The notes below the pieces were generated by a model that saw only the letters and a program-made list of their open reading frames with translations, ran no database searches and was not told the DNA's origin. This document shows positions 2,740 through 55,126 of a stretch of 64,000 bases of DNA, piece by piece (positions within the stretch are counted from its first letter, which is position 1; each line of letters starts with the position of its first letter). Source of the DNA: an uncultured Nitrososphaerota archaeon (GTDB lineage: Archaea > Thermoproteota > Nitrososphaeria > Conexivisphaerales > DTJL01); the NCBI GenBank assembly GCA_963842885.1, contig CAWJIE010000003.1, forward strand, positions 194,684-258,683. Direction: 5' to 3'. The translations under genes were made by a program, and so were the position numbers.

Positions 2740-2741
2740 TT

Positions 2742-3722: not shown

Positions 3723-3933
3723 TCTCGACCCCTCCAGCGCGCTACCCCTCCGCCGACCCGTTCGGAAGGCGCTACGCGGGGCACGGTGGCATATCGTCGA
3801 GCTCGATAAAAACGTTATTGCGAGGGACCAGCGCCACTTTCCCCTCAGGTGGTCTTCCAGCCTCTTCCGCTCGTCCATCGTGAAGATGACCCCACGGTGG
3901 GGGCAGCGCACCGACTCGGCGACAATCTCCTCT

Positions 3934-8732: not shown

Positions 8733-8750
8733 CGGCTTCGCTGTGAGTTC

Positions 8751-8768
8751 TGAAAAGTTTAAAACAGG
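8751..8768 (+). promoter_or_regulatory. Putative BRE/TATA promoter (TGAAAAGTTTAAAACAGG) for the L7Ae operon
   Basis: Purine-rich stretch plus TTTAAAA about 40 nt upstream of the 8807 start. The same 14-mer recurs at 14193-14206. Confidence 0.5.
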
Positions 8769-8806
8769 TTCCTTGCACGGTAGAGGTCAAGGGTGAGTAT
8801 GAAAAG

Positions 8807-9203
8807 ATGACCCCGTCGGAAAGTCCGGCCGGCAAGCCTTACTTCGTGAAGTTTGAAACACCTAAGGAGCTGGCCGAAGCCGCATATGAAGCCGTTCGTC
8901 AAGCCAAGCAGACAGGAAAGGTCAAGAAGGGAACCAATGAGACGACCAAGGCCATAGAGAGAGGCACGGCCAAGCTCGTCGTCGTCTCCGAGGACGTCGA
9001 GCCGCCAGAAGTCGTCGCACATCTTCCGATGCTCTGCACCGAAAGGAAGGTGCCATATCCTCTATGTGGCATCCAAGCAGCAGCTGGGTGCCTCCATGGG
9101 GATGGACGTCCCCTCGGCGGCCTGCGCCATAACCGAAGCTGGAGAAGCGCAGCCCCTCCTCGAACAGATCCTGACAAGCCTGAGCAAGATTCAGGTAGGC
9201 TGA
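8807..9203 (+). CDS. rpl7ae: Ribosomal protein L7Ae; apparent frameshift near 9059-9061
   Basis: [35 protein letters not shown], then [28 protein letters not shown]-stop in the next frame. Confidence 0.85.
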
Positions 9204-9209
9204 TCCTAG

Positions 9210-9428
9210 ATGAGCAGCAAGGCCACCGAAGAGAAGCTGACCCCAGCAGAGGTCATCCAGATCGTGGGAAGGACGGGGGTGGCCGGGGAGATCACGCAGG
9301 TCAGAGTGAAGATCCTTGAAGGCAAGGACAAGGGACGGATCCTGACAAGGAACGTCAAGGGGCCCATACGTGCGGGAGACACCCTTATCCTTCGCGAGAC
9401 CGAGCGCGAAGCTAGGAAGATCAAGTAG
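9210..9428 (+). CDS. rps28e: Ribosomal protein S28e
   Basis: 72 aa; [49 protein letters not shown]. Confidence 0.9.
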
Positions 9429-9438
9429 GGAATGACTC

Positions 9439-9633
9439 TTGCTGTCTCTTAGGAAGTGCAGTTTCTGCGGCAAGGACGTCACACCGGGGACTGGCATACA
9501 GATCGTGCGAAACGACGGCTCCGTGTTGTACTTCTGCTCGAACAAGTGCAGGCTGAACCAGCTCAAGCTCAAGAGGGACCCACGCAAGCTGAAGTGGACC
9601 TCAAAGCATGTGAAGGGTGGCAAGGGCATTTGA
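9439..9633 (+). CDS. rpl24e: Ribosomal protein L24e
   Basis: 64 aa; [22 protein letters not shown] zinc-ribbon motif. TTG start is forced because no in-frame ATG precedes the conserved Cys. Confidence 0.9.
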
Positions 9634-10110
9634 GCGCCGGCGCCTTTGACATCACAAAGGTCGGCACCTACTCCTCTGATGAGCTGAAGGGCAAGACCCT
9701 CGTCCTGGTCAAGCCTGACGCCTTCTCCAGGAAGCTCGCGGGCGAAATCATCGGCAGATTCGAAGCCAAGGGCTTCGGCCTCCTCGAAGTCAAGAAGCTC
9801 GAGCTGACGAGGGAGCAGGCAGAGGACTTCTATTCCGTGCACAGAGGGAAGCCCTTCTACGAGAAGCTGGTGGCGTCGATATCGGCGGGTCCCATCGTGG
9901 CCCTGGTGCTGGAGGTCCCGGCTGAGCAGAGACACCAAAGGGAAGACGGCCGTCGAGATCGTCCGCCTCATGGTGGGTTCGACCAACCCATCCGAAGCCG
10001 CTGCGGGCACCCTTCGAGGGGACTTCGGGCTGGACATAACGGACAACGTCGTCCACGCCTCGGACTCTGTTGAAAGCTTCGTCAAGGAATCCAAAGTCAT
10101 CTTCAAGTAG
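9630..10110 (+). CDS. ndk: Nucleoside diphosphate kinase; apparent frameshift around 9910-9945
   Basis: [52 protein letters not shown], then [35 protein letters not shown] in another frame. Confidence 0.85.
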
Positions 10111-22883: not shown

Positions 22884-23813
22884 CTACTCTGACTTGACGC
22901 TCTTTGTGACGTCGCTCGCAACGTCGGCGGTTTCAGAGAAGATCTCAGAGCTGACCTTGTGCTTGAGAGGATGCGTCGGTTCGGGCTTATCAAGGAGTTT
23001 CGTCAGTCTGAGATGCTCTCCGGTGCCTCCGCGTCGGAGCTTGATGATCTCAGCCATTATAGAGATGGCTATCTCCTCCGGGGTCTCGGCGCCGATGTCG
23101 ATGCCGACGGGGGCATAAATCTGGAACAGCCTCGCGGCCGGCACACCCTCCTTAACAAGGTCCCTGTAGGCAGCATTGACACGGTTCTTGCTTCCAACCA
23201 TGCCGACGTAACGAGCCTTGGTGTCAAGCACGGAGCGAAGCGCCTCTACGTCGTACCGGTGCTCTGTGATGACCAATATGCTGTCATAGGAGGTGATCTT
23301 GACCTCCTTTATCTTCTGGAGCACGTCCTGTGTATAGATCTCGGCGTTAGGGAATGCCGATTCAGTGGCGAAGGGATCCAGGACCATCACGCGCTGTCCT
23401 AGGATCTCGGCTATCCGGTAGCAGCCCTTGGCGATGTTGCCAGATCCGAACATAATCAGGCGCTCAGGAGGCTCCACTAGCTCCAGCGCGATCTTGACCG
23501 TACCGCCGCACGCCATCCCCAGGCCGCTCCAGCTCTCGTCTCCGAGATTGAAGGTCTTGACACGAGTCTGGCCGTCCTCGAACACAAAGCGCGCCTCCCG
23601 GACCACATACTTCTCGACACAGCCGCCGCCGATCGTGCCCACCGTGGGCCCCGACTCTGGGATGACCATCTTCGTGCTGACTCCCCTCGGGACGGAACCG
23701 TCAGCCTCGACGACAGTTGCTACGACAATGCGCAACCCGTCGCCCAACATCCTCGACACGACAGTGTAGATGTCTTCCAAGCGGCTACACCAAGACTTCC
23801 AGCTCAGTCCCAC
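22884..23813 (-). CDS. XdhC/CoxI-family molybdenum-cofactor chaperone
   Basis: 309 aa; ATVVEADGSVPRGVSTKMV..GTIGGGCVE, Rossmann-like LIMFGSGNIAKG and YVGMVGSKNR. Start overlaps the tusA-like stop by 10 nt. Confidence 0.8.
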   Translation of the reverse strand: MGLSWKSWCSRLEDIYTVVSRMLGDGLRIVVATVVEADGSVPRGVSTKMVIPESGPTVGTIGGGCVEKYVVREARFVFEDGQTRVKTFNLGDESWSGLGMACGGTVKIALELVEPPERLIMFGSGNIAKGCYRIAEILGQRVMVLDPFATESAFPNAEIYTQDVLQKIKEVKITSYDSILVITEHRYDVEALRSVLDTKARYVGMVGSKNRVNAAYRDLVKEGVPAARLFQIYAPVGIDIGAETPEEIAISIMAEIIKLRRGGTGEHLRLTKLLDKPEPTHPLKHKVSSEIFSETADVASDVTKSVKSE

Positions 23814-24100
23814 CTTTGCCCGCAGGGGCCGATGGCCGGGAGCGGCTTATCCGCCATCTTCTCGGGAGATTTCTTGACAACCAGATGAAAATCCTCACCC
23901 TCTTCTCTGGAGTTCACGATCTCCTGGCCATGGTTCCAGCAGTACCTTAGAACGTTGTCCTTAGACGTGTGGTCGTTGACGACGATCTCTATGACCTCTC
24001 CCATCTGGGCTCCTTCGATCGCCCGCTTTGTCATCAAAATGGGCTTGGGGCAGGGTTCGTTCCTCGCATCAACCACCAATTGCGCTGCCGTTTTGGTCAA
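23804..24100 (-). CDS. tusA: TusA/SirA-like sulfur-carrier protein
   Basis: 98 aa; DARNEPCPKPILMTKRAI (CPxP active-site motif). Confidence 0.75.
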   Translation of the reverse strand: MTKTAAQLVVDARNEPCPKPILMTKRAIEGAQMGEVIEIVVNDHTSKDNVLRYCWNHGQEIVNSREEGEDFHLVVKKSPEKMADKPLPAIGPCGQRWD

Positions 24101-24333: not shown

Positions 24334-25546
24334 ATGTCCCGGAACACCATGTTCAGGAAGCTGTTCCCGACCAGCAATGCTGCGACTGACCTCGTGGTGG
24401 TTATTGCAATCGTGGTTGCCGTCAGCTTCTTCATCTACTCGGCATCCGGCATCTTCATCGGAGGCATCCTGGCTTTCCTGTTCGGGCTGGCCACATGGAC
24501 CCTCATGACTTCGCCGAAGCCTTACAGGCTGAGGAGCATTTTCGTGTTCGGCCTTACTCTGGCGACCTGGACCGCCTTCCTGGCGTTCCTCGCCGAGCTG
24601 GGCCCCTCGTACTTGGGCAGGTGGCTCAGCACGCACGAGAGGGTCCCGCTGACGCCTGCCCCCATCACCACCAGCGGCTTCGTCTCCATCCTGTGCCCCT
24701 ATCTCCTCCCCGCGGCCCTGGGGCAGCCTGTGACCGTCTCTGTTCCCGTCTATATCAAGTTCTTCTCGTCTTTTCCGCCCAGCATCGACCTCTTCTCCGT
24801 AATCTTTCTATCCTACGTCGCCACCGCATTCGTGCTCGGCAAGGGCTGGTGCGGATGGCTGTGCCCATTCGGCGGGCTTGGAGAGACTCTGCGCCAACGC
24901 CACGAGCCCCTCAAGGTCTACACGAAGTCAGTGAAATGGATCAAGGATGTCTCGTCGCGGAGAGGCTTCGACCTCGAAGGCATGGAGCCGGGCCAGATGC
25001 TCCGCGACGTGAAGTACGCCTTCCTCGTCGTCACCCTCCTCCTGGCCCTCTTCTACTCAGTGCAATGGTTCTGCGTCTTCTGCTGGGCCGGGATCCTGGG
25101 GTGGTTCAGGTCGTCACTCAACATCTACGATCTTCATGGTCATCATGGGCGCCCTCTTCCTCGGGCTTCCTCTGCTCAGCACCAAGAAGTGGTGCCATTC
25201 CATCTGCCCGGTGGGCGCCGGCCTGAGCTTGGTGGACAGGGCCACTCCTTTCAGGATATCCGTGGACGAAGCCAAATGCAACGAATGCTATGACTGCTTG
25301 AACATCTGCCCCACCTTCGGGTTCGCCACGAAGGCAGACGGCGCGGTATACGTGACCGACACCTGCGACAAATGCTTGGTCTGCGTGTACAAGTGCCCCA
25401 GCAAGGCCATAGACCTGCACCTGTACAACATCAAGACAGATGCAAAGAAGTTCCTCATCCCTAGCGCGACGATCCTTGGCGCCTTCTGGTTCTACTGGTT
25501 CATCGTCGTGGTCTACAATCTCATCACGCTGAGGGTGCTCTTCTGA
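24334..25546 (+). CDS. NapH/MauN-like polytopic membrane iron-sulfur protein; apparent frameshift near 25115-25130
   Basis: KGWCGWLCPFGG and KKWCHSICPVG motifs, plus C-terminal CNECYDCLNICP and CDKCLVCVYKCP ferredoxin motifs. Several TM stretches. Confidence 0.65.
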
Positions 25547-26239
25547 TGGCTCTCGACACGCTGGCGGCAGGCCTCCTTCTCGGGCTCAGCAGCGGAGTGC
25601 AGTGCACCGTTACCTGCCTGCCCCTCCTGCTCACCCAGCTCACCGGGGGAAAAAGGACCGCGAGGGACGGCCTGCGCATATCTGTTCTTTTCTCACTGGG
25701 GAGGCTGGTGGTCTACTTCACTCTGTCCTGCCTTCTCTACTATTCCTTCAGGGCGTTCAGCGGAGCCTTAGGCAACCCCGTACCCGAATCGATTACGACG
25801 GCGCTGATGGGCGCGATCCTGATCTACTATTGTTTTCGAGCGATCGAAAGGAAGAAGGACACATCTTGCGCGGCAAGGTCCAAGGCCAAGCTCATCCGCC
25901 TGCCGTTCACCTCCCTTGCCGTGACCGCCAAGCCAGGGAGGAGCTGGACCGCTCTCTTCCTCGGCATCGTCTCGAGCATGAGCGTCTGCCTCCCGCTCGT
26001 GGCACTGATCTCCATTTCGGTCGCCTCTGACCTGGTCACCACCTTCACTTCGGTATCGATGTTCTGGCTGGGTTCGTCCGTCTACTCGATCGGGCTCGCG
26101 TTGGCGTTGGCTGGTGTCTCCCGCGTCAGGATAGGGGCGTCGCTGAGCAAGAGGGTGGGCTTCGTCGGAAGCCTTTCTGGCATCTTGCTGGGAGCGTTCA
26201 TGCTACTCGCAGGCTCTGGGCTCGCTGGCCCTTCCCTAG
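25546..26239 (+). CDS. DsbD_2/CcdA-like membrane protein; C-terminus uncertain
   Basis: LGLSSGVQCTVTCLPLL in the first TM helix, six or more hydrophobic segments. Start overlaps the upstream stop (TGATG). The track ORF runs to 26529 across the convergent YeeE gene; a TAG at 26237-26239 is one frame off. Confidence 0.5.
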
Positions 26240-26703
26240 AACAGCCGCGTGAAGACGCTGACGTAGTTCACAACCACGAACTGGAAGAAGAGGATCCCGA
26301 TGTAGAATCCTACCAGATAGATGATGGCGGCTCCGTTGCCAGTGGTGGCGTTGACGTGCTGCCTCAGTGGACATCCTTCCGCCATCACCGAGAAGAAGGC
26401 ATAGCCCAGGCCGCCTATCACCGACAGGATCAATGTGGCGACGGAGCTCGCGCCAGGTTCGTTATGCAGCATCAGAGGGAAATCAGCCATATGCGGAGAG
26501 AACCTGAAGAACAGAAGGTAGCCGACTAAGGCTCCGAGCGCCATGCCTACGATGGTCCTCATGAAAAGCGTGTCCCTGAAAAGGTAGAAGTCGCGGTATC
26601 CCGATATGGAACACGACTTCGACCTCTGCCATAGGTAGCCTATGATACCCCCAGCCGCGAGCGTGGTCAAGCCGATTTCCAGAGTCAAAGGCGGACCCTC
26701 CAT
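26236..26703 (-). CDS. YeeE/YedE-family sulfur/selenium transport protein, C-terminal-half homologue
   Basis: 155 aa, multi-TM; SKSCSISGYRDFYLFRD and AEGCPLRQH motifs typical of the family. Confidence 0.7.
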   Translation of the reverse strand: MEGPPLTLEIGLTTLAAGGIIGYLWQRSKSCSISGYRDFYLFRDTLFMRTIVGMALGALVGYLLFFRFSPHMADFPLMLHNEPGASSVATLILSVIGGLGYAFFSVMAEGCPLRQHVNATTGNGAAIIYLVGFYIGILFFQFVVVNYVSVFTRLF

Positions 26704-27173
26704 TTGATGTAGTTCGCTGAAATCACCACGCCGGAGATCATGCCGATGAGCCCCACGAGCGCTACGAAACTGCCGTACATCAAGGCCATTATGATGTGGA
26801 CGGAGCAGTAGCCCAACGTCAGCCCGAACATGGCCACGAAGAAACCGTTGATGAAATGATCCAGTGGATGCCTGGGCATGCGGAAGCTGAACTCCTTGTT
26901 CCGGAAGGTGGAGATGGAAGCGCCCACCAGCACGCCTACCACCGTCAGCACGGGGATGTCCACCGACGGATCATGGACATAGAGCGTCGTCCCGAACAGA
27001 TGGTTCACGATCCAGTCAATGAGGTCACTGGGGTGGCTGATGAAGCAGATGCCGAACGCCGACGGAGGGGCGACGTACACCCAAGCCTGGGCCACGGCGG
27101 CCCACAGGCCGGTCACGAACCCAGCTGTAAGCTTGTCTACCTTCAAGTGCATGCTCACCCTAGAAGGTATCAA
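26685..27173 (-). CDS. YeeE/YedE-family sulfur/selenium transport protein, N-terminal-half homologue
   Basis: 162 aa, multi-TM; PSAFGICFISHP and LGYCSVH conserved-Cys motifs. Overlaps the next gene by 19 nt. Confidence 0.7.
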   Translation of the reverse strand: MIPSRVSMHLKVDKLTAGFVTGLWAAVAQAWVYVAPPSAFGICFISHPSDLIDWIVNHLFGTTLYVHDPSVDIPVLTVVGVLVGASISTFRNKEFSFRMPRHPLDHFINGFFVAMFGLTLGYCSVHIIMALMYGSFVALVGLIGMISGVVISANYIKWRVRL

Positions 27174-28032
27174 CTACCTTGACCACAGCCTCCCCGATGT
27201 GCTTTATGATTTCAAAGACCTGCGTAGCAGGCGTAGGGTTCGTCATCTGGCCTGCCAGGCGATTGGCGTGCCCCGCTATGAGGCAGGCGCGAATCGGCTC
27301 ATAGCCTCCTGAGATGAGCGCGGAGACCATCCCGGTAATCGTGTCCCCCGTCCCACCAATGGGCTCCAGGGCAGGGATGTTGGGCTCAGAGATGGTGTAC
27401 ATAATCTTGCCGTCGTCGACGATGAAGTCGGTGGGCCCCTTGATGAGGAGATACCGAGGAGCGTTGCCGCCGGCATAGGCCTTCTCTATGAGCTTGGGCA
27501 CCTCCGTCGTGTCTATGTCGAAGAGCATGGATTTCACGTAGGCCGGGTGACCGGCCTCGGGATCGGCGAGGAAACATATCTCTCCGGCGTCGGGGGTGAA
27601 CAGGTCGAACTTCTTGCACGCGCCCGTGGCCTTCGCTATGAGCATGGAGCCCGCGTCGGCGATCATGAAGGGCCTCTTCTCCCAGTAGTCGAGCATCTCG
27701 ACGAACTCCATGAACGGTTTCCTGATGGGGAGGATGTAGTGCATGGTCACGGCGTTGGCGCCCAGCGCCCCGGCCTTCTCCGTGAGGTATGCGTACAGGG
27801 CGGCCGAACCGGCGCCCTTTCCCATGTCGCCGGCCACCACCCCCATGGGTGCCTCTATGCCCAAGGCCTCGGCCGCGGTGGCGGACGCGGCCATCATGGC
27901 CATGGCGCCTATGGAGCCCAGCTCCTTGGGGATGTACTTGTCTCCCAGCGAGATGGACCTGCCATCGTACTTTATCGTGCCGAAGATGAGGGAACTGTCC
28001 TCGACGGGCAGCGTCCCCGAAAGGAGGAGCAT
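27160..28032 (-). CDS. YjeF_C-like carbohydrate-kinase-fold protein (related to ADP-dependent NAD(P)HX dehydratase)
   Basis: 290 aa; FMIADAGSM, LFTPDAGEICFLAD, LLIKGPTDFIV and EPIGGTGDTITGMVSALISGG. Confidence 0.55.
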   Translation of the reverse strand: MLLLSGTLPVEDSSLIFGTIKYDGRSISLGDKYIPKELGSIGAMAMMAASATAAEALGIEAPMGVVAGDMGKGAGSAALYAYLTEKAGALGANAVTMHYILPIRKPFMEFVEMLDYWEKRPFMIADAGSMLIAKATGACKKFDLFTPDAGEICFLADPEAGHPAYVKSMLFDIDTTEVPKLIEKAYAGGNAPRYLLIKGPTDFIVDDGKIMYTISEPNIPALEPIGGTGDTITGMVSALISGGYEPIRACLIAGHANRLAGQMTNPTPATQVFEIIKHIGEAVVKVVDTF

Positions 28033-28593
28033 CTATTTCATCTTCTTCCAAGCTTGCAGGGCGGCTTCGTATGCCTTCTGCAAAGTGTATGCGCAGAGAG
28101 TGAAGCCCAGCTCGTTGGGCGAAACAGCCTTGTCGAGCGGCTGCCCTATCATCCTGAGAGCGAGGAGGGGGATGTCCGGGCATCCTCCACCAGATATGTT
28201 CACGATGACGCCCGTGGCCTTCTCGAACGTAAGCTTCATGTTCCCGACGCGGATCATCAGGTACTTCCCGAAGTCGACCTTCTTGACAAGTTTGCTGACC
28301 TGAAGCGGAGGGAGGTCGCCTTCGGATGCGAACACGACATCGAGTATGGGTATCCCGTCCGCCCTGAGCACCTTCTCTGCGGCGTTGACCTGGTTGCTGG
28401 GGACTGACATGGCGATGTCGCAGCCCGTCCTGACTTCAGGAGGTGGGGCGCCGGCCTTGGTATCGAGACCGGCTCGCTTGAGGACATGCTCGGCCCTCAT
28501 GGCATCCCTGAAAAGCTCGAAGAGGAAGAGAGACCTGGAGAGGCCGTATTGATCGGTCCGCTTATGCGGGGAAGACAACGCGTCGCTCGACAC
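28033..28593 (-). CDS. DUF3343 (putative Se/S-carrier-like) domain protein with an extra C-terminal Cys domain
   Basis: 186 aa; LFLFELFRDAMRAEHVLKRAGLD..PPPEVRTGCDIAMSV fits DUF3343. The C-terminal half has NISGGGCPDIP. Confidence 0.55.
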   Translation of the reverse strand: MSSDALSSPHKRTDQYGLSRSLFLFELFRDAMRAEHVLKRAGLDTKAGAPPPEVRTGCDIAMSVPSNQVNAAEKVLRADGIPILDVVFASEGDLPPLQVSKLVKKVDFGKYLMIRVGNMKLTFEKATGVIVNISGGGCPDIPLLALRMIGQPLDKAVSPNELGFTLCAYTLQKAYEAALQAWKKMK

Positions 28594-28725: not shown

Positions 28726-29206
28726 CTATGCCATCTTTGCGGTCTCCGAATCCAATCCCTCAAGCGTCTCGGCCAGCTTCTTGACGGCGACGACGACCTC
28801 AGGCGTGGGCTTCCCCTTCATCTTCCTGACTTGGACCCCTAGCGAGCATGATTCTGGTGCCCTCCAGCTCAGAGGCGATTACATGCGCCAGCACGGACAA
28901 CGGGAACTTGTGCACCAGAAAGAACTTGGTCTCCTGTCTCAGAAGGTCCTCCAGCACCAATTCGCCCGGCGCCAGGTTCCTGTCGACGGCATTGACCATC
29001 AGTATGACTTCAGGCCGGGCCTCCAAGACGTTAGGGACGAACTTCTCTGGCGCCGTTTCGCAGAGGAGTGCCCTGATGTTCACTAGGTGTCTGTGGACCT
29101 TTCTAAAAAGAAGAGGGCCAGCGACGTCGTCTCCGAAGTCGCTGCCTACGCACATCATCAAGGTTCGCCGGCCCTTTATAAGCCGGCGAATCTCTGCTGG
29201 GTCCAT
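28726..29206 (-). CDS. [NiFe]-hydrogenase maturation endopeptidase; apparent frameshift near 28838-28848
   Basis: LMMCVGSDFGDDVAGPLL, ILMVNAVDRNLAPGE, then GVQVRKMKGKPTPEVVVAVKKLAETL in the next frame. Confidence 0.7.
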
Positions 29207-29219
29207 TAGTGAGCTACGG

Positions 29220-30087
29220 TCAGGCGGTCTGGGCGGCCGGGGCTATTTGCTTTGCGTCCTTCAGCATCGCGTTGTACATGCCGACGAAGTTGAACGAGAA
29301 CGGGCAGACCCCTGCGCATAGGTTGCATTGGGTGCAGGTAGCCATCTGTTCCGAGACGTACTTCACCTCGGTCGGCGTCAGCCCCCTGCTCCTCTGTATC
29401 TGGTAGTACTTCCTCAGCTTCAGCACGGGCGCCTCCATTGGGTCGTGGTTGAAAGCTTCGTAGGTGGGGCATACCTCCACGCATCTCCCGCACCTTCCGC
29501 AGGCGGACGCGAAGGCGAGCATGTTGGTGCCAGTGTCGGCCTTTGTGACCCTCCAGTACAGGGTGGCGATGCCGTGCCTTACGGCCCCTCCTGCGAAGAA
29601 GGAGACCACCAGCCACACGTATATCAGCAGCAGGTGGAGCGTGCCGAAGTAGGCGTAGGCGGGTGTCCCGAAGCTCGACTAGCGACACGAAGCCGAAGAC
29701 CTCGATTGCCTGCACGAGGCCGACGACCGCGATGGGCACAAGGAACACCAGATCGACGAAGAACACCTTGCCATAGGCGACCCTGAAGAAGGGGTTCCTC
29801 ATGTATCGGAGCACCAGCCCGATCCCACCCGCGATGATGAGGATGCCGGTGATGCCGTGTATCCAGGAGAGGAGCCATCCGTAGCCTCCAAACACGTCGG
29901 CCGTGCCGGCGAGCAGGAAGGGGACCTCCATCACGAGACCCGTGATTATGTTGCCCCAGAGGCCGAGATGAAATACGAAGTCGCTCAGACCGACCGTGAA
30001 GCTTCTCGAGAAGAGGAGCGACAGGAGCCCTGGTTTCTGGGCGTGCAGCGAAGACAGTTTGTACTTCTGTTCCTTGCTCTTTGCCAT
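29220..30087 (-). CDS. Membrane di-haem-b-like (NarI/DsrM/HdrE-type) subunit fused to a 2x[4Fe-4S] (HdrC-like) domain; apparent frameshift near 29668-29672
   Basis: Four His in predicted TM helices (FVFHLG, SWIHGI, GTLHLL, AVRHGI). C-terminal CGRCGRCVEVCP and CTQCNLCAGVCP. No CCG-type domain seen. Confidence 0.6.
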
Positions 30088-30088
30088 T

Positions 30089-31012
30089 CTACTTCACCAC
30101 TTTCTCCTCTTTCTTGACGACCATCGGCGTCTCTTCCTTCCTGTTGTCGCGCCATCTGAGCGCGAAGAATGCCACTCCAGCCAGCAGAGGGATCCATGCG
30201 AGCCTCACCCACTGTTCGGCCGTCGAGAAGAGCTTGTTCTGGGCTGGGTAGGCGGACTTCACCACCGTGACCTCGGGCGTGGTGGACATTGTCTTGAATT
30301 CGTCGGCCGTAAGGACGTAGAAGGTTGACGTGTCGTTCTGGTAGAGCATCGTCGCGCCGTTGCCCAGTGCTGTGACCACATCTTGTCCGGTCGAAACCAT
30401 TTCGCTGCACGAACCCCAGTTCTTGGCGGTGGTGGTGAGGTTCGCGGCCTGGAGAGTCATGGCCGTCGGTCCCCCGCCGGGGCAGACCTGTACGCAGAAG
30501 GGCTGGTGGTGCCGTCCTCCGTGAAGTTGACGCAATGGTCGCACTTCAGGATCTTCTTGTTGACGTTGTCTGTGGTTATCGAGCCGAATGGGCAGACCGA
30601 CGTGCAAAGGAAGCAGCCGATGCACCTGTCCTTGTCATAGGACACCGTGCCCGACGGCAGTTGGGTCAGCGCGTGCGTCTGGCAGACGGTGGCGCAGGGT
30701 GCGTCGTTGCAGTGGAGGCAGTTCTCTGGAATGGGCAATGTGCCGTTAGGGCCTGGCGTGGCGACCCTGGTGTAGGCGTTGCTTGACGGGGTATTTTCTG
30801 ACAGTGCTCAGGTCTGGCTTCGTCATGCCGCTGTGGTACTGGTTGCAGGCTTCGACGCAATGGTCGCACCCGATGCAGTTCCCCACGACGATCAGCATGG
30901 CCCTCTTGGGTGTGTTGGCTTGGACCAGCTTCGGCGCCATGGCCGCCGTGACCACGACGAGGCTGCCGCCTGCGGCCGCGGTCTTCATGAAGGTCCTTCT
31001 ATCCATGTTCAT
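30089..31012 (-). CDS. Tat-signal 4x[4Fe-4S] HybA/DmsB/DsrO-like ferredoxin with C-terminal membrane anchor; two apparent frameshifts
   Basis: MNMDRRTFMKTAAAGG (twin-arginine motif). CIGCDHCVEAC, CLHCNDAPCATVC, CIGCFLCTSVCP and CDHC..CVQVCP. C-terminal LAWIPLLAGVAFFALRW helix. Pieces lie in three frames (shifts near 30745-30790 and 30495-30510). Confidence 0.7.
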
Positions 31013-31013
31013 C

Positions 31014-32428
31014 CTAATTCCCTCCAATAACCCGTTTCACCTTGCCATCCTCGTCCATCAGCTCGACCTTCAGGGCTTTCTCGAGGTGCGTAGCGCACGA
31101 GATGCACGGGTCGTAGGCTCTGATGACCAGGCCCACTTCATGCCATAGGTTGTCCTCGTTGACCTTCCCTGGGCTGACGTTCCGGTTCGCCGCGCTCCAG
31201 AGCGAAGCCTCGAAACCGTTGGCGTTGACGACGGTGGGCGTGATTATGTTGGCCTTGGTGATGTAGCCCTCGTCATTCCACTTGTAGTTGTGGATGACCG
31301 TTCCCCTTGCCGCCTCGCAGCAGCCGGCTCCTTCACCGGCCTTCATCTTGAAGGGGGTCTTGAGCTCTCCCTGGGTGATCGATGTGTCCGAGAGCAGCTG
31401 CTCGAGCCTTTCAGCGGCGTACACCAGGCAGACGTACCTGGCGAGGTTGTACTGCAGGGTCCCATGAACCGGGGAGCCGTACTTGCCCCTCAGTTCCTTG
31501 AGGAGCTTGTCGGCCATGTCGGTGCCGGCGCTCTTGGCTACGTTGACGCGAGCCAGAGGTCCGGTGCGGATGAAGGCCCTGTCCTTCTGCTGTCCCTTCA
31601 CCGTGACGCTCTTTCCGTAGGAGTATTCGCAGGGGTTCCTCCGCTATCTGGTTCATGTAGTCGGAGATCTTGAACTCGGAGATCTTGGCGCCCGCCTTGT
31701 CGATGATGGTGATGTCCCCCTTGTAGAAGCTGATGTTCCCTGCGTCGCTCATCGCCATGTAGCCTGACTCCACCTTGCCGAGTTCGATGTTGTCGTCCAC
31801 GAACTTCTGCAGCACCGGGGCGATGGCGGCGTCGTACCAGCCTATGACGTTCTTCTTCGCCTCCAGGACGTAGCCGAGGAGCTTCTTCCTAGTTTCCTCG
31901 TCGATTCCCCTGTTGAACCCGCCTGGGACGGCGGTCATCGGGATGGACGGCCTGAACGCCGATGGTCTCGATTATCTTCTGGCCCACCGCACGCGTGTAA
32001 ACGACCTGCTTGGCGACCTCGGGGAACTTCCTGTAGACCCCTATGATGTCGCGCTGCTTGAAGGGTAGCTCCGGGAGCAGGTAGTCGGGCCCCGCCAGTA
32101 TGAACAGATGCAGCGTGTGGTCGCCGAGTATCTCGCCCATCAGCATAAGCTCCCTGAGCTTCTCCGCCCGCTCTGGTATCTCGAGGCCAAGGCCGTTGTC
32201 GATGGCCTTGGCGCTGGCCAGGTGGTGGGGGATCGGGCAGACCCCGCAGATTCTGGTCACGATTATGGGGGCCCTGTGGACGAGCCTTCCTTCCAGGAAT
32301 CGCTCGAAGCCCCTGAACTCGGCAAAGTCTGCCATAGTCTTCGTGACCTTGCCCTTCTGATCTAGCTGCACCTTGACGTTAAGGTGCCCTTCGATTCTTG
32401 TTACCGGATCGATTTCAATTTGACTCAA
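31014..32428 (-). CDS. [NiFe]-hydrogenase large subunit (about 470 aa); two apparent frameshifts
   Basis: VTRIEGH, RICGVCPIPHH and DPCISCATH followed by a 23-aa C-terminal extension. Three ORF pieces joined at about 31938-31941 and 31632-31635 (C/G runs). Confidence 0.85.
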
Positions 32429-32434
32429 GTCTTG

Positions 32435-32914
32435 CTAACCTCCCAGTAGTTCGCTCAACAGCTCCTTGATTACCGGTCCCGGAGGGGGGCATCCAGGTAT
32501 CACATAGTCGACCTTGACGTGCTTGGAAAGTGGTTCCAGCTTGTCGAGGATCTCAGCGCCCTGGGTGGGCGCCTTGCCATCGTAGGCCGCTGTCAACAGC
32601 TCCTCGTTGGTACTCAGGTTCGCCAGACCGGCCAGCCCGCCGGTGCTCGGGCAGGTCCCGAACGAAACGAGGATCTTCGACTTCTTCCTTGCCGCTTGAA
32701 CTCTCTCCAATTCATGCTTAGTCCGCACCACGCCTATCACGAAGGTGACGTCTGCCTGGTCATAATCGATGGCGCTAGCCAAGACGGGTGCATAGACAAG
32801 ATCGACGCTCTTGTCTAACACCTTCAGCAGGCCGACGCCAAGATCAGCCAAAGCTATTTCACATCCTCCGCAGATAGCACAGTCTTCGATTGCGAGTTTT
32901 GCTTTAGCCGCCAT
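32435..32914 (-). CDS. [NiFe]-hydrogenase small subunit, minimal form (159 aa, proximal cluster only, no Tat signal)
   Basis: CAICGGCE, FGTCPSTGG and IPGCPP. N-terminus MAAKAKLAIED lacks a twin-arginine. Confidence 0.8.
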   Translation of the reverse strand: MAAKAKLAIEDCAICGGCEIALADLGVGLLKVLDKSVDLVYAPVLASAIDYDQADVTFVIGVVRTKHELERVQAARKKSKILVSFGTCPSTGGLAGLANLSTNEELLTAAYDGKAPTQGAEILDKLEPLSKHVKVDYVIPGCPPPGPVIKELLSELLGG

Positions 32915-33121: not shown

Positions 33122-33673
33122 ATGCAATCGTTCAAGGTCATCGTTCTGTCTTCGGCCGGAGTGGCCATCGCCCTCCTTCTATCCCACTACACGATGACGT
33201 ATCAATTCGGCGTGTTGGTGGCCCTGCCGCAGCTGGGCGTATTCCTTGCTGCCGGGGCAGGCGGGCCCATATGGGGTCTGCTCGCAGGAGCGGCAGGAGG
33301 GCTGGGGCTCTATTACGGTCATTCTGACACCACGTGGCTGACCGTCTTGACCCTGACTGGGCTTACAGCAGGGCTCTTGTCCACCAAGTTCAGACCGACG
33401 GCGGCGGCCTTCGTGTCGTGGTTGACGGTGGGCCTGGTAGCCTCGTATGTCATCTACGCGCAGAACGGCCAGCCCAGCCAAGCCTTCTACTCCTGGCTCG
33501 CGACCTTCTCCTACGAGGTCGTGATATCGGCCACCGTCGTGGATGTACTGCTGTCGCTGTTTCGCGTGAGCAGAATAAAACAGAAAAAGGTTGAAAGCAG
33601 TGAAGTGGCGGCAGGCTCAGAAGCTCAGACAGAGGTCGGCCTCTATCATACGCCTGCTAATCTCGGCCCTTGA
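33122..33673 (+). CDS. Hypothetical polytopic membrane protein
   Basis: 183 aa, about five hydrophobic segments, Gly/Ala-rich helices. Divergent from the hydrogenase operon across an AT-rich spacer. Confidence 0.45.
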   Translation: MQSFKVIVLSSAGVAIALLLSHYTMTYQFGVLVALPQLGVFLAAGAGGPIWGLLAGAAGGLGLYYGHSDTTWLTVLTLTGLTAGLLSTKFRPTAAAFVSWLTVGLVASYVIYAQNGQPSQAFYSWLATFSYEVVISATVVDVLLSLFRVSRIKQKKVESSEVAAGSEAQTEVGLYHTPANLGP

Positions 33674-33967
33674 AGCGATGGCGAAGTCGTCTGCGAGGAG
33701 CTTGGGGTCAATCCCCTCCTCCCTGAGGGATTCCTCTTCGACGAGGAACTTCTTCCCTCCTTCGTCAGGGAAGAACTCGAGGAACTTCAAGGCGTATTCC
33801 CTGTCAACCCCCTTGACGGCGCAGCGAGCCCCCTTCCCCACGAAGGCTGCTGTCACCGTGTGGTTCTCATCGCCGCTAAGCATTCCAGCTGAGACCCTAA
33901 GCCCTTCCACGAAATAGGCACTGCTTACAGGAGGACGGAGGAACAGGACGAGGATGTTCTTGGACAA
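33617..33967 (-). CDS. DsrF/TusC-like protein
   Basis: 116 aa; ILVLFLRPPVSSAYFVEGLRV..AAFVGKGARC and C-terminal DLCLSF; DsrE/F-fold pattern. Confidence 0.6.
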   Translation of the reverse strand: MSKNILVLFLRPPVSSAYFVEGLRVSAGMLSGDENHTVTAAFVGKGARCAVKGVDREYALKFLEFFPDEGGKKFLVEEESLREEGIDPKLLADDFAIASRAEISRRMIEADLCLSF

Positions 33968-33979
33968 TTCTCGAGCCCC

Positions 33980-34240
33980 CTAGAGGAAGTTCACGACCTT
34001 GTCGGTCTCCATCATGCCGACCAAGTCGTCGAAGCCGATCGGATGGGCACCACTGGGGAAGGAGTCCCCAAGGCCACGGCGCGCAGCGTCGTCGCGGATG
34101 TAGTACACCTCTCCCTTGAAAGCACCTCTCTTTGCGACGTAGACTCCGTCCTGGAGCAAGACAACTCGGGCTCCCGGGTCGTTGGCAGCGTACGCAAAGG
34201 CCAGGTTCGCGAAAGGCTCGTCGATTAGATACAAAGTCAA
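33980..34240 (-). CDS. DsrH/TusB-like protein
   Basis: 86 aa; VVLLQDGVYVA..VYYIRDDAARRGL pattern. Confidence 0.6.
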   Translation of the reverse strand: MTLYLIDEPFANLAFAYAANDPGARVVLLQDGVYVAKRGAFKGEVYYIRDDAARRGLGDSFPSGAHPIGFDDLVGMMETDKVVNFL

Positions 34241-34253
34241 TCCACATCTCTTC

Positions 34254-34631
34254 CTATATCGTTATCAGTCTGCCACACTTGCTGGCCATGCCTGAGACGA
34301 AAGCGACGCTCACGATCTTCACGCCCTTGTAGTAGTCCTTCCCCTCGTCGAGCCCTCGGTTGTAGCTGCAGACCTCGCAGGCGTATATCTCGGCCCCCTT
34401 GGCCAACAGCGCCTTAAAGGAGTCCATGGGTAGCCTCTGCAGCACGGGAAACACCTGCGTCCCCAGAGCGTTGTAGATGCCGTCCAAGAACAGGAAGAAG
34501 GTGACCTTGTGTGATCTGTTCAAGGCGGCATCGGCGATCTTGCAGGCCGTGTCCCATCTTTGAGTCTGATACGGTCCTCCTGTCAGTATAATCCCAATGT
34601 CGGTCAATCTGAGTCTGTTGGACAGGGGCAT
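34254..34631 (-). CDS. DsrE/TusD-like sulfurtransferase
   Basis: 125 aa; IGIILTGGPY, VTFFLFLDGIY and IYACEVCSYNRGL (conserved Cys position). Confidence 0.65.
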   Translation of the reverse strand: MPLSNRLRLTDIGIILTGGPYQTQRWDTACKIADAALNRSHKVTFFLFLDGIYNALGTQVFPVLQRLPMDSFKALLAKGAEIYACEVCSYNRGLDEGKDYYKGVKIVSVAFVSGMASKCGRLITI

Positions 34632-35149: not shown

Positions 35150-35227
35150 TGGTGCGAGGCGCGGGATTTGGACCCGCGTTGCCACCTTGGGAGGGTGACG
35201 TCCTGGACTAGGCTAGACCAGCCTCGC
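35150..35227 (-). tRNA. tRNA-Gly (anticodon CCC), CCA encoded
   Basis: Manual fold: acceptor GCGAGGC/GCCTCGC. D stem GTCT/GGAC. Anticodon stem TCACC/GGTGG with loop CTCCCAA. T stem GCGGG/CCCGC with loop TCCAAAT. Discriminator A, then CCA. Confidence 0.85.
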
Positions 35228-48913: not shown

Positions 48914-49658
48914 CTACTTGGGAGTTTCAGCGGGTTCGCCGGGCTTCGATACCTTGGCGATGAAGGAGTTGATCTCCTCTTCAGTGAGTTTCCGCATTGT
49001 CTTCGTCTTGGCGTCGACGACGGCCATCTTGATGTGCTTTGGCTCGGCCTTGTCCTCGCCGCTCTTCCCTACGCTCTCCACCGCGAGAATGCAGGCGGCT
49101 TCCAAGGACATTCCACGGGAGTACTTCTGTTCCAAGAGCTCGTTCACTTGGTCGCCTCCGCCTCCGATGGCGATGGCGTCGTATCCGAGATACGTCCCAC
49201 TGGGGTCCGTAACGAAGATGGAGGGCCCGTTCTTGTCCACGCCAGCGATGATGAGTGAGACACCGAAGGGTCTCACGCCGGCGTACTGCGTGAACTGCTG
49301 TGCGGCGTCGCCAAGATGGCGGGCGATCCCTTCAACGTCGATCGGCTTCGTCGTAGATCAGCCTGTTGTTCTGGGCCTGGGTCCTCGCCTGGTCCACCAT
49401 GACTCGGGCATCGGGGACGTAACCGGCAGCTGCGATGCCGATATGGTCGTCCACCTGAAAGAGCTTCTGGCTCAGCTCGCCGTTCTGAAGCTTCCTGACG
49501 CGTTCCTCAGCGCAGAGCACGACTCCTTCCTCGCACTTGATGCCGATTGCGAGGGTCCCCCGCCTGACCGTCTCGATGGCATACTCAACCTGGTAGAGGC
49601 GACCATCGGGCGAGAATATAGTTAGTGCCCTGTCATATCCGGCTGATGGAGCAAACAC
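48914..49658 (-). CDS. psmA: Proteasome alpha subunit; apparent frameshift near 49346-49348
   Basis: YDRALTIFSPDGRLYQVEYA..GIAAAGYVPDARV, then PIDVEGIARHLGD..RPFGVSLIIAGVD in the next frame. Confidence 0.85.
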
Positions 49659-49766
49659 TGTAGATATTCACCGACTTAGTTAGCCTAGAAAATCGGTTCT
49701 TTTTAACTCTTTTTGGACTTCGTAACAATGCGTTTAAGACCTCGGCGTGTCTCTCCAGACTGAACC

Positions 49767-52502: not shown

Positions 52503-54918
52503 GTGGCGCCCAAGGAGACCTCCGATTACAGGGGAGCGTCGGTGGAAGAAGTCCTCGGGGCGCTACATTCAAGCCTCCAACGGGCTAGGATGAGGCCGAG
52601 GTTCAGGCCCGCCTGAAGAGGTTCGGATACAACGAAGTATCAGAGAAGAAAAGGAATCCCGCCAGGGAATTCCTCATTCGGCTGTGGGGTCCCATGCCTT
52701 GGCTGCTGGAGCTGGCAGCGGTCCTGGCCTATCTTCTGGGGCATGGAATTGAAGCGGCCATAATCGTGGTCTTGCTCCTGATGAACTCAGTAATCGGCTT
52801 CAGACACGCCCAGAGCTCGACGAAGGCTCTAGAGCTCTTGAAGTTGAGACTGGCCATCAGGGCGAAGCTGCTGCGTGACGGAAGGTGGACGACCAAGGAG
52901 GCGAGGGAAATCGTGCCAGGCGACATCTTCGTCGTCGGCCTGGGCGACTTGGTGCCCGCCGACGCGATGGCGCTTGATGGGGAGCTCTCGGTTGACCAGT
53001 CGGCGCTGACCGGTGAATCAATGCCGGTCCGGGTCACCCCTCAGGGCATAGTCTACTCTAGCTCCGTCGTGACCAGGGGGGAAGCCAAATGCGTGGCGCT
53101 CAACACCGGCGCGAACACGTTCTTCGGTAAGACCGCGGAGCTCGTGAAGGTGTCCAAGCCCAAGTCGCACCAGGAAGGGATCATGCTGGGCATCATCAGG
53201 TACATGATGTACGTGAGCATAGTCGCCCTGGCGTTGGTGACGGCTTACGCCTTCTACATCAACGAGGACTACGCATCCATCCTCACCTTCGCCGTCATCT
53301 TCCTCCTGGCGGCCGTACCCGTGGCACTCCCGGCGGTGCTGACCGTCGTCCAGGCGGTGGGCGCGATGCAGCTCGCCAAGCGTGGAGCGCTGGTGACAAG
53401 GCTGGACTCGGTTGAGGACGCGGCCTCCATGGACGTGCTCTGCCTGGACAAGACGGGGACCATAACCCAGAACAAGCTGTCAGTGACCGGCGTGGTCGCC
53501 TTCTTCGGTCACAGCAACGAGGAAGTCATGGAGATGGCTGCGCTCGCCTCAAAGTCCGAGAGCAAGGACCTCATCGACCTGGCCGTCATCGACTACGCTA
53601 GCGTCTTTGAAGGCCTCGCCAAACGGCTTTCAACAGGTGGCCTTTACGCCGTTCGAGCCTTCAACTAAGGTCGCCGAAGCGATGGTAAAGCGCGGCGACC
53701 ACAGCTTCAGGACAGTGAAGGGATCGCCACAGACGGTTGTCACCATGTGCTCCGGCCTTTCCCGAGACGATGCGACAGAGGTGACCGAAGCAGTCGAAGA
53801 GCTGTCAAGGAAGGGGTACAGGTCTCTGGGCGTGGCCCAATCCTCCGACGATCCCAGGGACCTGCGCTTCTTGGGAATCATTTCCTTGGCGGACCCGGTC
53901 AGGCCGGATTCGAAGGAGATGATCGAAGACGCCAAGGAGCTGGGCATAAGGCCCATCATGCTGACTGGCGACAGCATCGCCATAGCTGAGGAGATAGCTC
54001 AGCAGGTCTCCATAGGCGGTAAGATCGTGGAAGTTGAGGAGCTGAAGAAGCTGGGCGACCAGCAGCAGGGAAGGCTCGTCGAAGAGTGTGGAGGCTTCGC
54101 CCAAATCTACCCGGAGGACAAGCACCGCATAGTCAAGCTGTTGCAGTCGAACGGCCATGTGGTCGGCATGACCGGCGACGGCGTGAACGATGCCCCTGCG
54201 CTCAAGCAGGCCGAGATGGGAATAGCTGTTAGCACGGCCACGGACGTAGCCAAGTCATCTGCCAGCGTCGTCCTGACTGAGCAGGGGGTGGGGGTCATAA
54301 TCGACGCGGTCAGGCTCAGCAGGCAGACATACCAGAGGATGCTGTCTTGGGTGATAAACAAGGTGACCAAGACGATTCAGGTGGTAGGCCTGCTGACCAT
54401 CGGGTTCTTCTGGACACATGAAGTGCTCCTTTCTCTTTTAGGGATGACCCTCCTCGTCTTCGCTAACGATTTCGCCACCATGTCCCTCTCGACCGACAAC
54501 GTCAAGCACACGATTAGCCCTAACGTATGGAACATACGCAGGATTACCTTCGCTTCATTGATTATCGGGCTGTTCCTTGTGCTGGAGGGCGTCGTCGGGG
54601 CCTACGTGGGAATGACATACTTCCATCTCGACCTTCCACAGTTGCAAACCCTGGTGCTCGTGCTGCTGGTCTTCACCAGCCAATTCAGGGTACTTATCGT
54701 GAGGGAGAGGAAGCATTTCTGGTCCTCCATGCCCGGGGCGGGACATGCTCATCTCCTCGGTGGCGACCACCGCGGCCTTTGTAGCCCTGGGCACGTTCGG
54801 CCTGATAATCCCCGCCATCCCGTTCTATCAGGTGCTATCGATGTTGGGCTTTGCACTGGTCTTCATCGCCCTTCTGGACCTGCCGAAGTATTTGGCTTTC
54901 AAGAAGTTCGGGCTGTAG
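52503..54918 (+). CDS. P-type (type IIIA-like) H+-transporting ATPase; at least three or four apparent frameshifts
   Basis: N-terminus SVEEVLGALHSS..DEAEVQARLKRFGYNEVSEKK, PGDIFVV, TGES, CLDKTGTITQNKL, MLTGDSIAIA and GMTGDGVNDAPALKQA. Frame changes near 52575-52590, 53612-53620 and 54735-54745. Confidence 0.85.
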
Positions 54919-55126
54919 TCGAAGACGGAGTTCGGCCGGCGAGCGTCCAATTGACCTATTGCTTTCAATGACACGAAGATGAAGGAAGTCATCGCATTAG
55001 CAGGTCCAAGCCTACGTCTAGGAGTCTGCATCCTCAATCCCACTCTTATTCAAAGGTGCCCAAAATCGTCGCAGTTTCTTCCGACTGGCACATAGGGCGG
55101 TAGGCCGCGTAGATAATCGGTCGAGG

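Follow-up and report, generated by a model that had tools for sequence, protein, structure and literature searches.

We analysed a 64,000-nucleotide stretch of DNA (the window) from an uncultured Nitrososphaerota archaeon of the Conexivisphaerales, and in it an operon of five genes, arranged head-to-tail on the minus strand from 32914 to 28726, that encodes a [NiFe] hydrogenase and its putative redox partners. These are the small subunit, the large subunit, a ferredoxin with a twin-arginine translocation (Tat) signal, a membrane protein in which a cytochrome b is fused to an iron–sulfur (FeS) domain, and a maturation endopeptidase; an earlier note on this DNA had placed five minus-strand genes at 28726–32914, and they are indeed there. 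As judged from sequence comparison, the operon probably encodes a membrane-bound hydrogenase of group 3c descent, whose catalytic dimer lies on the cytoplasmic face and is wired across the membrane. Such wiring of a minimal cytoplasmic dimer, through FeS centres and haem b, to the Tat-exported ferredoxin had been proposed in the earlier note, and, the direction of electron flow aside, the comparative evidence set out below favours it.

Results

We compared the operon with twelve related loci (L001/L002, L003, L004 (partial), L005, L006, L007, L008, L040, L041, L042 and L044). The small subunit, the large subunit and the cytochrome-b/FeS fusion occur together in all twelve, in archaea and bacteria alike, and in most of them the protease gene adjoins the hydrogenase genes. 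The operon is thus not a chance arrangement, because it is conserved across many independent assemblies; the complete five-gene synteny was also recovered intact in relatives, including other Conexivisphaerales. Genes for MvhD and HdrABC are absent around the window operon and in all twelve loci.

The small-subunit gene (32435–32914) is an intact open reading frame for a protein of 159 aa, which matches Pfam Oxidored_q6 (87 bits) and has no signal peptide; its N-terminus reads MAAKAKLAIEDC, is devoid of an RR motif, and the protein carries one cluster. It aligns solely to residues 1–166 of the 299-aa MvhG (5odc_E; 97 bits), which form the proximal-cluster domain, and to residues 1–155 of 9sfi_I; the NCBIfam model VhuG gives 108 bits against a cut-off of 450. 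Four cysteines are kept among the relatives compared, namely the pair in CGGC and those of FGTC and PGCPP. The earlier description of a 159-aa protein with the proximal-cluster cysteines alone and without a Tat signal was thus accurate. The first cysteine of CAICGGC is not conserved (it is histidine in L005). In relatives, the small subunit is either 159–182 aa long or consists of the same domain behind an N-terminal extension ending in a membrane helix, and a three-cluster small subunit with a Tat signal was found in none of the relatives examined. The idea that the small subunit might really be longer, with a Tat signal and medial and distal clusters, is not borne out.

The large-subunit gene (31014–32428; Pfam NiFeSe_Hases) is spread over three frames and, once repaired, encodes 470 aa with the L1, L2 and L5 motifs RIEGH, RICGVCPIPHH and DPCISCATH, followed by a 23-aa tail that would be cleaved; the repaired protein is 96% identical to the intact P0001. 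Among solved structures its best match is MvhA (5odc_F, 329 bits), followed by the large subunit of a bifurcating NiFe enzyme (7t2r, 316 bits), a 9sfi chain annotated as F420-reducing hydrogenase alpha subunit (302 bits), subunit A of an F420-non-reducing hydrogenase (9sw2, 285 bits) and HoxH (5xf9, 270 bits). F420-reducing FrhA-type, sulfhydrogenase and group 1 enzymes score ~85–120 bits, and the group 1 matches (~85–116 bits) mostly cover the N-terminal region alone. With the NCBIfam model VhuA it scores 324 bits, where the cut-off is 800. The 120 best database matches to the large subunit fall into two clades in a neighbour-joining tree: one, P0001–P0045, holds every protein whose genomic context was checked, and the other holds the named methanogen Mvh proteins, including a Methanocella Mvh that has a 306-aa small subunit. 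By these comparisons, the large subunit is MvhA-like, with group 3c as its nearest relative, and belongs to a clade of its own with its own type of operon; it does not appear to nest in a well-described subgroup whose reference operons carry the same partners. The features of group 1 are lacking, as the earlier note had held from the size of the large subunit: it has 470 aa as compared with ~550–600 aa, and the small subunit has no twin-arginine signal. The small subunit also departs from group 3c, with 159 aa instead of ~300 aa and one cluster instead of three.

The last gene (28726–29206, two frames, ~159 aa) encodes a HycI-like protein, for which Pfam HycI gives a weak match (E value 0.004). 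Its orthologue in L001 comes close to the cut-off of TIGR00072 (45.4 against 47.45) and scores 46.8 with TIGR00142 (HycI; cut-off 119). Its position in the operon and the tail that follows DPCISCATH in the large subunit fit the role of a maturation endopeptidase.

The membrane subunit is encoded at 29220–30087 (288 aa, two frames), and its C-terminal third is a Fer4_8 domain. An AlphaFold2 (AF2) model built on a 31-sequence alignment (mean predicted local distance difference test, pLDDT, 65) predicts four helices, at residues 34–58, 63–97, 108–130 and 142–164. His40 and His77 are present in 31 of 31 relatives, His151 in 29 and His171 in 26, and the window protein has all four, which presumably serve as ligands of two b haems. 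The eight cysteines of the two CxxCxxCxxxCP motifs in the Fer4_8 domain are essentially invariant, and Pfam finds no CCG domain in the window protein or in 60 relatives. The mean number of lysine and arginine residues (K+R) is 6.6 at the N-terminus, 0.1 in loop 1, 4.1 in loop 2, 0.0 in loop 3 and 3.6 after helix 4, and this distribution therefore puts the N-terminus, loop 2 and the Fer4_8 domain in the cytoplasm.

Residues 1–190 of the membrane subunit matched no Pfam family. When 1.84 billion cluster representatives were searched exhaustively with a family profile, 12 full-length relatives came up at E<1e-30, along with remoter matches (E values of 1e-5 to 1e-9) that combine Nitrate_red_gam with Fer4_8 and two CCG domains, the architecture of DsrMK, HdrED and EtfD. 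Foldseek, run on the pLDDT-65 model, gave weak matches, with NarI as the best (E value 0.47, TM-score 0.37) and EtfD at an E value of 0.9, and a profile search of PDB sequences with the cytochrome family gave no meaningful match. The membrane domain thus appears to be remotely related to NarI, DsrM and HdrE; the earlier note was right about the four membrane-embedded histidines, the two cysteine motifs and the lack of a CCG domain, and the homology it named is a distant one. We considered an FdnI/HyaC-type cytochrome, from the 1+1+2 histidine pattern over four helices, and left this type unassigned, as the remote homology points to the NarI/HdrE superfamily. In the 820-aa protein P0312, the same four-helix domain is fused to a GltD-like flavoprotein (Fer4_20 and Pyr_redox_2) and a ferredoxin domain, which replace Fer4_8; the four-helix module may also work with other redox partners in the cytoplasm.

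The ferredoxin gene (30089–31012, three frames, ~307 aa, Pfam Fer4_11) encodes a HybA/DsrO/FdnH-like beta subunit that carries the twin-arginine motif DRRTFM. With the Tat model TIGR01409, the close L004 orthologue exceeds the cut-off (23.4 against 16.7); with Pfam TAT_signal, the protein stitched together from the window stays under it (16.5 against 22.7). The RR motif is present in all seven unfused ferredoxin relatives checked. At the C-terminus lies a hydrophobic helix, a membrane anchor, followed by a K/R-rich tail. The nearest solved protein is FdnH (1kqf_B, 59 bits), and the best NCBIfam models, HmcB (77 against a cut-off of 420), HybA (76 against 263) and DsrO (67 against 200), do not reach their cut-offs. 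The Tat signal, the anchor and the four cluster motifs had all been recognized before, though the strict form CxxCxxCxxxC occurs in only two of the four, the other two being the usual variants. The 'extra insert of about 90 aa' that had been described is no insert: it is the ordinary C-terminal segment of the beta-subunit family, and the stretch LLYP..T.TLYV is common to all relatives.

The strongest indication of sidedness comes from natural fusions. In L040 the gene ahead of the large subunit encodes 442 aa, in which a PsrB-like four-cluster (Fer4_11) domain is followed by the helix LSALAVKWAPWIGSIAALLVLGPLLGVYA, then by RKRKRLFPKAERLK and by the small-subunit domain. The preceding gene encodes a 744-aa molybdoenzyme with the Tat signal TRRKFIAA, which matches Thermus PsrA (2vpw) with 326 bits and PhsA with 408 bits, and a gene for a TorD-like chaperone follows the protease gene. 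In L006 (4538–6004) the small subunit, of 488 aa, starts with a hydrophobic segment and continues with ~270 residues rich in N-x-S/T, a helix, the stretch TRARKRKP and the small-subunit domain. Assemblies from JGI, ENA and NCBI yielded 9 clusters (at 90% identity) of fusions of the order PsrB-like Fer4_11, helix, R/K-rich stretch and small subunit, and 8 clusters of the order signal anchor, sequon-rich domain, helix, R/K-rich stretch and small subunit. Counted over 19 fusion proteins and within 15 residues of the helix, K+R number 20 on its outer side and 122 on the side of the small subunit. The fused small-subunit domain is thus placed in the cytoplasm, because it comes after a stop-transfer helix and a patch of positive charge, opposite a Tat-exported or sequon-rich partner. 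In the relatives that bear these fusions, the large subunit and the cytochrome are ~50% identical to those of the window, and we infer that the window's unfused proteins assemble with the same topology.

The two kinds of fusion have features of their own. The sequon-rich outside domain (L006 and P0197–P0204) has a conserved D/G-C-Y-C-H motif near its N-terminus and 6–8 N-glycosylation sequons, and has no Pfam match; immediately upstream, L006 carries genes for cytochrome-c assembly and for a radical-SAM protein. In P0187–P0189, one branch of the PsrB-type fusions, the small-subunit domain is ~20 residues shorter and has the altered motifs CALCDVC and YGACPVFG; it may be degenerate or re-purposed.

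The module predicted to lie outside varies among the loci. In the window, L001/L002, L003, L004 (partial) and L006 it is the Tat ferredoxin, and in L005, L007, L008 and L044 it is the Tat ferredoxin with an AOR-family enzyme adjoining the operon or inside it. These AOR-family genes (AFOR_N/AFOR_C; L005 176–2170, L007 533–3410, L008 170–2173, L044 2057–4715) come from four unrelated lineages. For the AOR enzyme's own ferredoxin partner, a Tat signal is seen in L007 and L044, and the DNA examined does not reach the N-terminus of this partner in L005 and L008. The same-strand order in L044 is Tat ferredoxin, AFOR, Tat ferredoxin, cytochrome-b/FeS, small subunit and large subunit. An exported AOR-family enzyme recalls YdhV/YdhX of E. 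coli. L040 has the PsrAB-like module fused to the small subunit, and L041, which ends at a contig edge, is likely alike. L042 has no Tat ferredoxin and instead encodes three multihaem cytochromes c with 10, 16 and 13 CxxCH motifs (732–1787, 2291–3832 and 8536–9918); they are archaeal, have Thr/Pro-rich linkers and flank the hydrogenase, which suggests hydrogen-linked extracellular electron transfer. Although L040, L041 and L042 have no separate Tat ferredoxin, all three retain the cytochrome-b/FeS fusion. A gene for a UbiA-family prenyltransferase directly adjoins the hydrogenase genes in two distant lineages (L007 7408–8214 and L042 4043–4855); it could provide a link to quinone or haem modification.

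Six breaks interrupt the operon within 4.2 kb, and base-level alignment against relatives shows that all six are one-base insertions or deletions. There are two single-base insertions in the large-subunit gene (~31943 and ~31630–31637), two breaks in the ferredoxin gene (~30784–30788, +1, and ~30502–30504, −1), and one each in the membrane-subunit gene (~29680, +1) and the protease gene (~28844, +1), exactly the tally that the earlier note had given. The two insertions are the sole length differences between the large-subunit gene of the window and that of L004, its closest relative (88% nucleotide identity); after repair, the two differ by 96 synonymous and 20 non-synonymous codons, and there is no stop codon. 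Single-base frameshifts likewise hit the essential proteasome alpha gene (48917–49667, minus strand) and a NapH-like gene (24349–25540, plus strand). The Conexivisphaerales metagenome-assembled genome L001/L002 (GCA_035543015.1) and other contigs share >11 kb of synteny with the window and encode all five proteins intact (160, 470, 307, 288 and 159 aa). Because the breaks are single-base indels, strike essential genes elsewhere, are absent from close relatives and come with a synonymous excess, we read the frameshifts as sequence errors that run across the whole window and as neither a property of the operon nor a sign of decay. A P-type ATPase gene (52589–54968, plus strand) is probably split too, as two long open reading frames overlap there in different frames.

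Within the Conexivisphaerales, the operon is flanked upstream by DsrE, DsrH and DsrE-like genes (window 33617–34631, minus strand). Downstream (26236–28593, minus strand) are genes for an Se/S-carrier with DUF8182, a Carb_kinase-like protein and two half-size YeeE/YedE (Sulf_transp) proteins, and this flank also has a DsbD_2 protein, a NapH-like protein and TusA (23807–24100, minus strand). The synteny of this sulfur-trafficking neighbourhood is kept in L001 and L003 and is confined to the Conexivisphaerales. The neighbourhood points to sulfur chemistry; we considered the DsrE, TusA and YeeE neighbours as parts of the complex, dropped them given the restricted synteny, and treat them as context. 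Near the operon, NapH-like (Fer4_5) membrane FeS proteins turn up repeatedly (window 24349–26529, plus strand; L040 10871–12377; L041 4726–6508). Their companions are the DsbD_2 protein in the Conexivisphaerales and a NapG-like ferredoxin in L040 and L041, which in L040 has a Tat signal. The sole RNA gene near the operon is tRNA-Gly(CCC) at 35150–35227.

Discussion

In the arrangement that we propose, H2/H+ chemistry would take place at the large subunit, in the cytoplasm. The lone proximal [4Fe-4S] cluster of the small subunit would exchange electrons with the two [4Fe-4S] clusters that the membrane subunit holds in its cytoplasmic C-terminal domain; docking on Fer4_8 is proposed because it is the sole cytoplasmic FeS module that is always present. 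From there, two b haems, stacked across the membrane in the four-helix domain as the conserved histidines and the remote homology to NarI, DsrM and HdrE suggest, would lead to the Tat-exported, membrane-anchored four-cluster ferredoxin, which would face the outer haem. Overall, an electron wire would span the membrane and join the H2/H+ couple in the cytoplasm to redox chemistry on the outside.

By established chemiosmotic principles, the energetics would depend on the direction of flow. With H2 as the donor, electrons would move outward and protons would be released inside, so that the reaction would be driven by the proton-motive force and would dissipate it. This would make sense only for acceptors that are hard to reduce (candidates are thiosulfate or polysulfide, and acids for the AOR-family enzyme), or if energy were conserved at some other point, or if passage through quinone or methanophenazine made the reaction neutral; a site for either carrier on the cytochrome could render H2 oxidation electroneutral. 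For Salmonella PhsABC, the proton-motive force has been reported to drive electrons outward through two haems. In the opposite direction, a donor of very low potential outside and reduction of protons inside would generate proton-motive force. The aldehyde/acid couple lies near −580 mV, and the recurrent link to AOR-family enzymes suggests that the system is there to handle electrons of low potential.

Several observations weigh against the arrangement. An inward-facing uptake enzyme with an outside acceptor conserves no energy at that step and dissipates proton-motive force, which is bioenergetically odd, and no outside catalytic partner is encoded beside the window operon. The evidence on topology comes from sister lineages and none of it from the window's own unfused proteins. 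AF2 modelling of the PsrB–helix–small-subunit fusion from 9 sequences gave a pLDDT of 39 and was unusable; the cytochrome model is moderate, and no structure or model of a complex backs docking on Fer4_8. His171, the predicted ligand of the inner haem, is glutamine in 5 of 31 relatives (P0139, P0141, P0146, P0150 and P0158), in which binding of that haem may be altered or absent. In addition, papers on Methanonatronarchaeia describe a path from extracellular H2 through a membrane-bound hydrogenase to methanophenazine (PMC7374477, PMC9796771).

The opposite orientation would be reached if the signal-less dimer left the cell with the Tat ferredoxin, as in hitch-hiking export, so that H2 would be oxidised outside; the ferredoxin would then replace the medial and distal clusters, and electrons would pass through the haems to quinone or to the cytoplasmic FeS domain. 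The models for this are the Hyd-2, Fdn-N, Isp-type and DsrMKJOP systems. Tat hitch-hiking of signal-less partners is established, the Tat signal and anchor of the ferredoxin resemble those of HybA and FdnH, and the layout would be bioenergetically sensible, as an energy-conserving redox loop; an outward module for electron input is also how the Methanonatronarchaeia literature pictures the complex (PMC9796771). However, all 17 fusion clusters place the small-subunit domain after a helix and an R/K stretch, opposite Tat-exported or sequon-rich domains, and L042, L040 and L041 keep the cytochrome-b/FeS fusion without a separate Tat ferredoxin; export that depends on the ferredoxin's Tat signal could therefore not work in L042. 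Export would also leave the cytoplasmic Fer4_8 domain without a partner within the operon. The earlier note had raised hitch-hiking as its alternative, and, with the fusions and L042 arguing against it, we think it unlikely, if still the foremost of the alternatives. The next in rank, also improbable in our judgement, keeps the dimer in the cytoplasm and makes it a cytoplasm-facing H2:quinone (or methanophenazine) oxidoreductase, in which the Tat ferredoxin would be an independent entry or exit port sharing the cytochrome. It would accord with the presence of both the operon and HdrDE in Methanonatronarchaeia, for which reviews model a path from H2 through methanophenazine to HdrDE, and with one review's assignment of the cytochrome, as 'FdhI', to formate dehydrogenase (PMC7374477). 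The remote likeness of the membrane domain to the quinol-handling NarI/HdrE family and the UbiA-family genes beside the operon in L007 and L042 point the same way. No quinone site, though, is identifiable from the sequence, and since the topology is the same, it amounts to a variant of the cytoplasmic-face arrangement and not a true alternative.

Two further explanations deny that there is a functional membrane complex here. Six frameshifts in 4.2 kb would be expected if the cluster were a decaying set of pseudogenes and the operon inactive in its host. The breaks, though, are single-base indels throughout, the repaired large subunit is free of stops and differs from that of L004 by 96 synonymous as against 20 non-synonymous changes, the proteasome alpha and NapH-like genes are frameshifted too, and the operons of close relatives are intact, so that we regard decay as very improbable. 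The explanation to which we give least credence, and which is barely plausible, is a conventional soluble Mvh-type (group 3c) hydrogenase with unrelated membrane genes beside it by chance. The top matches of both subunits are indeed MvhA/VhuA and MvhG/VhuG, and the JGI annotation of the large subunit is F420-non-reducing hydrogenase; against this, two of the three clusters are missing from the small subunit, MvhD and HdrABC occur in no locus, and the cytochrome-b/FeS fusion accompanies the hydrogenase in 12 of 12 loci; the fusion family is small (12 representatives at E<1e-30 among 1.84 billion).

The cytoplasmic-face arrangement has parts in common with several known systems. MvhAGD/VhuAGD (group 3c, 5odc) share the ~470-aa large subunit, the lack of a Tat signal and the cytoplasmic location proposed for the window dimer; here, in contrast, the small subunit has no medial or distal cluster, MvhD and HdrABC are missing, the partners are in the membrane and the clade is separate. 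A small subunit with the proximal cluster alone (179–189 aa), which needs a separate FeS partner, is found in HoxY/HoxH (group 3d, 5xf9) and HydS/HydL (7t2r), but their partners are soluble NuoEFG-like or HydABC modules, whereas here the partner is a membrane cytochrome. A NarI-type dihaem domain with a cytoplasmic Fer4_8 module is the mark of HdrED, DsrMK(JOP), HmeCD, Isp1/Isp2 (group 1e) and mycobacterial EtfD, and the window ferredoxin resembles the outside Tat ferredoxin of the DsrO/HmeA type, the functional analogy being transmembrane electron transfer. Unlike the HdrED/DsrMK group, the operon has no CCG catalytic domain and has the hydrogenase dimer in that functional position; there are four helices and not five or six, and neither DsrP/NrfD nor DsrJ. 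The hydrogenase of Isp-type enzymes belongs to group 1 and is Tat-exported. HybA of E. coli Hyd-2 and FdnH/FdnI of Fdn-N offer a precedent for an anchored four-cluster beta subunit on a dihaem cytochrome b, but Hyd-2 has its catalytic subunits outside and a Tat signal on the small subunit itself, and the cytochrome here has an additional cytoplasmic FeS domain. Salmonella PhsABC and Thermus PsrABC resemble L040 in its PsrA/PhsA-like Tat-exported subunit and PsrB-like beta subunit; L040, however, has no PsrC/PhsC and has the beta subunit fused to the small subunit, and no such enzyme lies beside the window operon. The parts are all familiar, and what is unfamiliar is the assembly and the proposed orientation.

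The family has been met before under other names. The 'HyaAB/HyaD/FdhI' of Methanonatronarchaeia is of the same family as the window operon; Ca. Methanohalarchaeum thermophilum (L005) has all five genes in a different order, with a large subunit 45% identical to that of the window. In Methanonatronarchaeum thermophilum, AMET1_RS02990-RS03005 are listed as HyaAB, HyaD and a b-haem FdhI, and the review models a membrane-bound hydrogenase that feeds methanophenazine and HdrDE in Methanonatronarchaeia (PMC7374477); a second paper describes a membrane [NiFe] hydrogenase complex that uses extracellular H2 (PMC9796771). In surveys of hot-spring and other archaea, group 3c enzymes are simply tallied as cytosolic and linked to Hdr (PMC11094006, PMC12787533). 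We found no paper in the searchable literature that describes the truncation of the small subunit, the Tat signal of the ferredoxin, the fusions or the sidedness, and the sole mention of the family there is that of the Methanonatronarchaeia.

A wider idea, which we put forward tentatively and as somewhat doubtful, is a modular 'hydrogen wire', in which an inward-facing [NiFe] hydrogenase and the dihaem/FeS subunit would combine with swappable outside enzymes into a charge-moving redox loop able to run in either direction. The outside modules would be the Psr/Phs-like molybdoenzyme, the Tat-exported tungsten AOR-family enzyme, the multihaem cytochromes or the bare polyferredoxin; the loop would either reduce protons inside with electrons from low-potential outside donors, or drive the reduction of very low-potential outside acceptors with H2 and the help of the proton-motive force. 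If it exists, it would be a form of H2-linked energy coupling distinct from both the outside uptake of group 1 and the ion pumping of group 4.

Current classification labels such enzymes 'cytoplasmic, bifurcating group 3c', and predictions of physiology made from metagenomes on that basis would be wrong for the P0001–P0045 clade. If the proposed topology is true, this would be a third way to attach a [NiFe] hydrogenase to the membrane, neither exported as in group 1 nor complex-I-like as in group 4, with swappable outside partners that include sulfur-, metal- and tungsten-enzyme modules. Since a cultured organism has the operon, the question can be approached experimentally now. The answer bears on how energy is conserved from H2 in the cultured methanogen Methanonatronarchaeum, on how the thermoacidophilic Conexivisphaerales may link H2 to the reduction of sulfur or iron, and on the formation of H2 driven by electrons from outside the cell.

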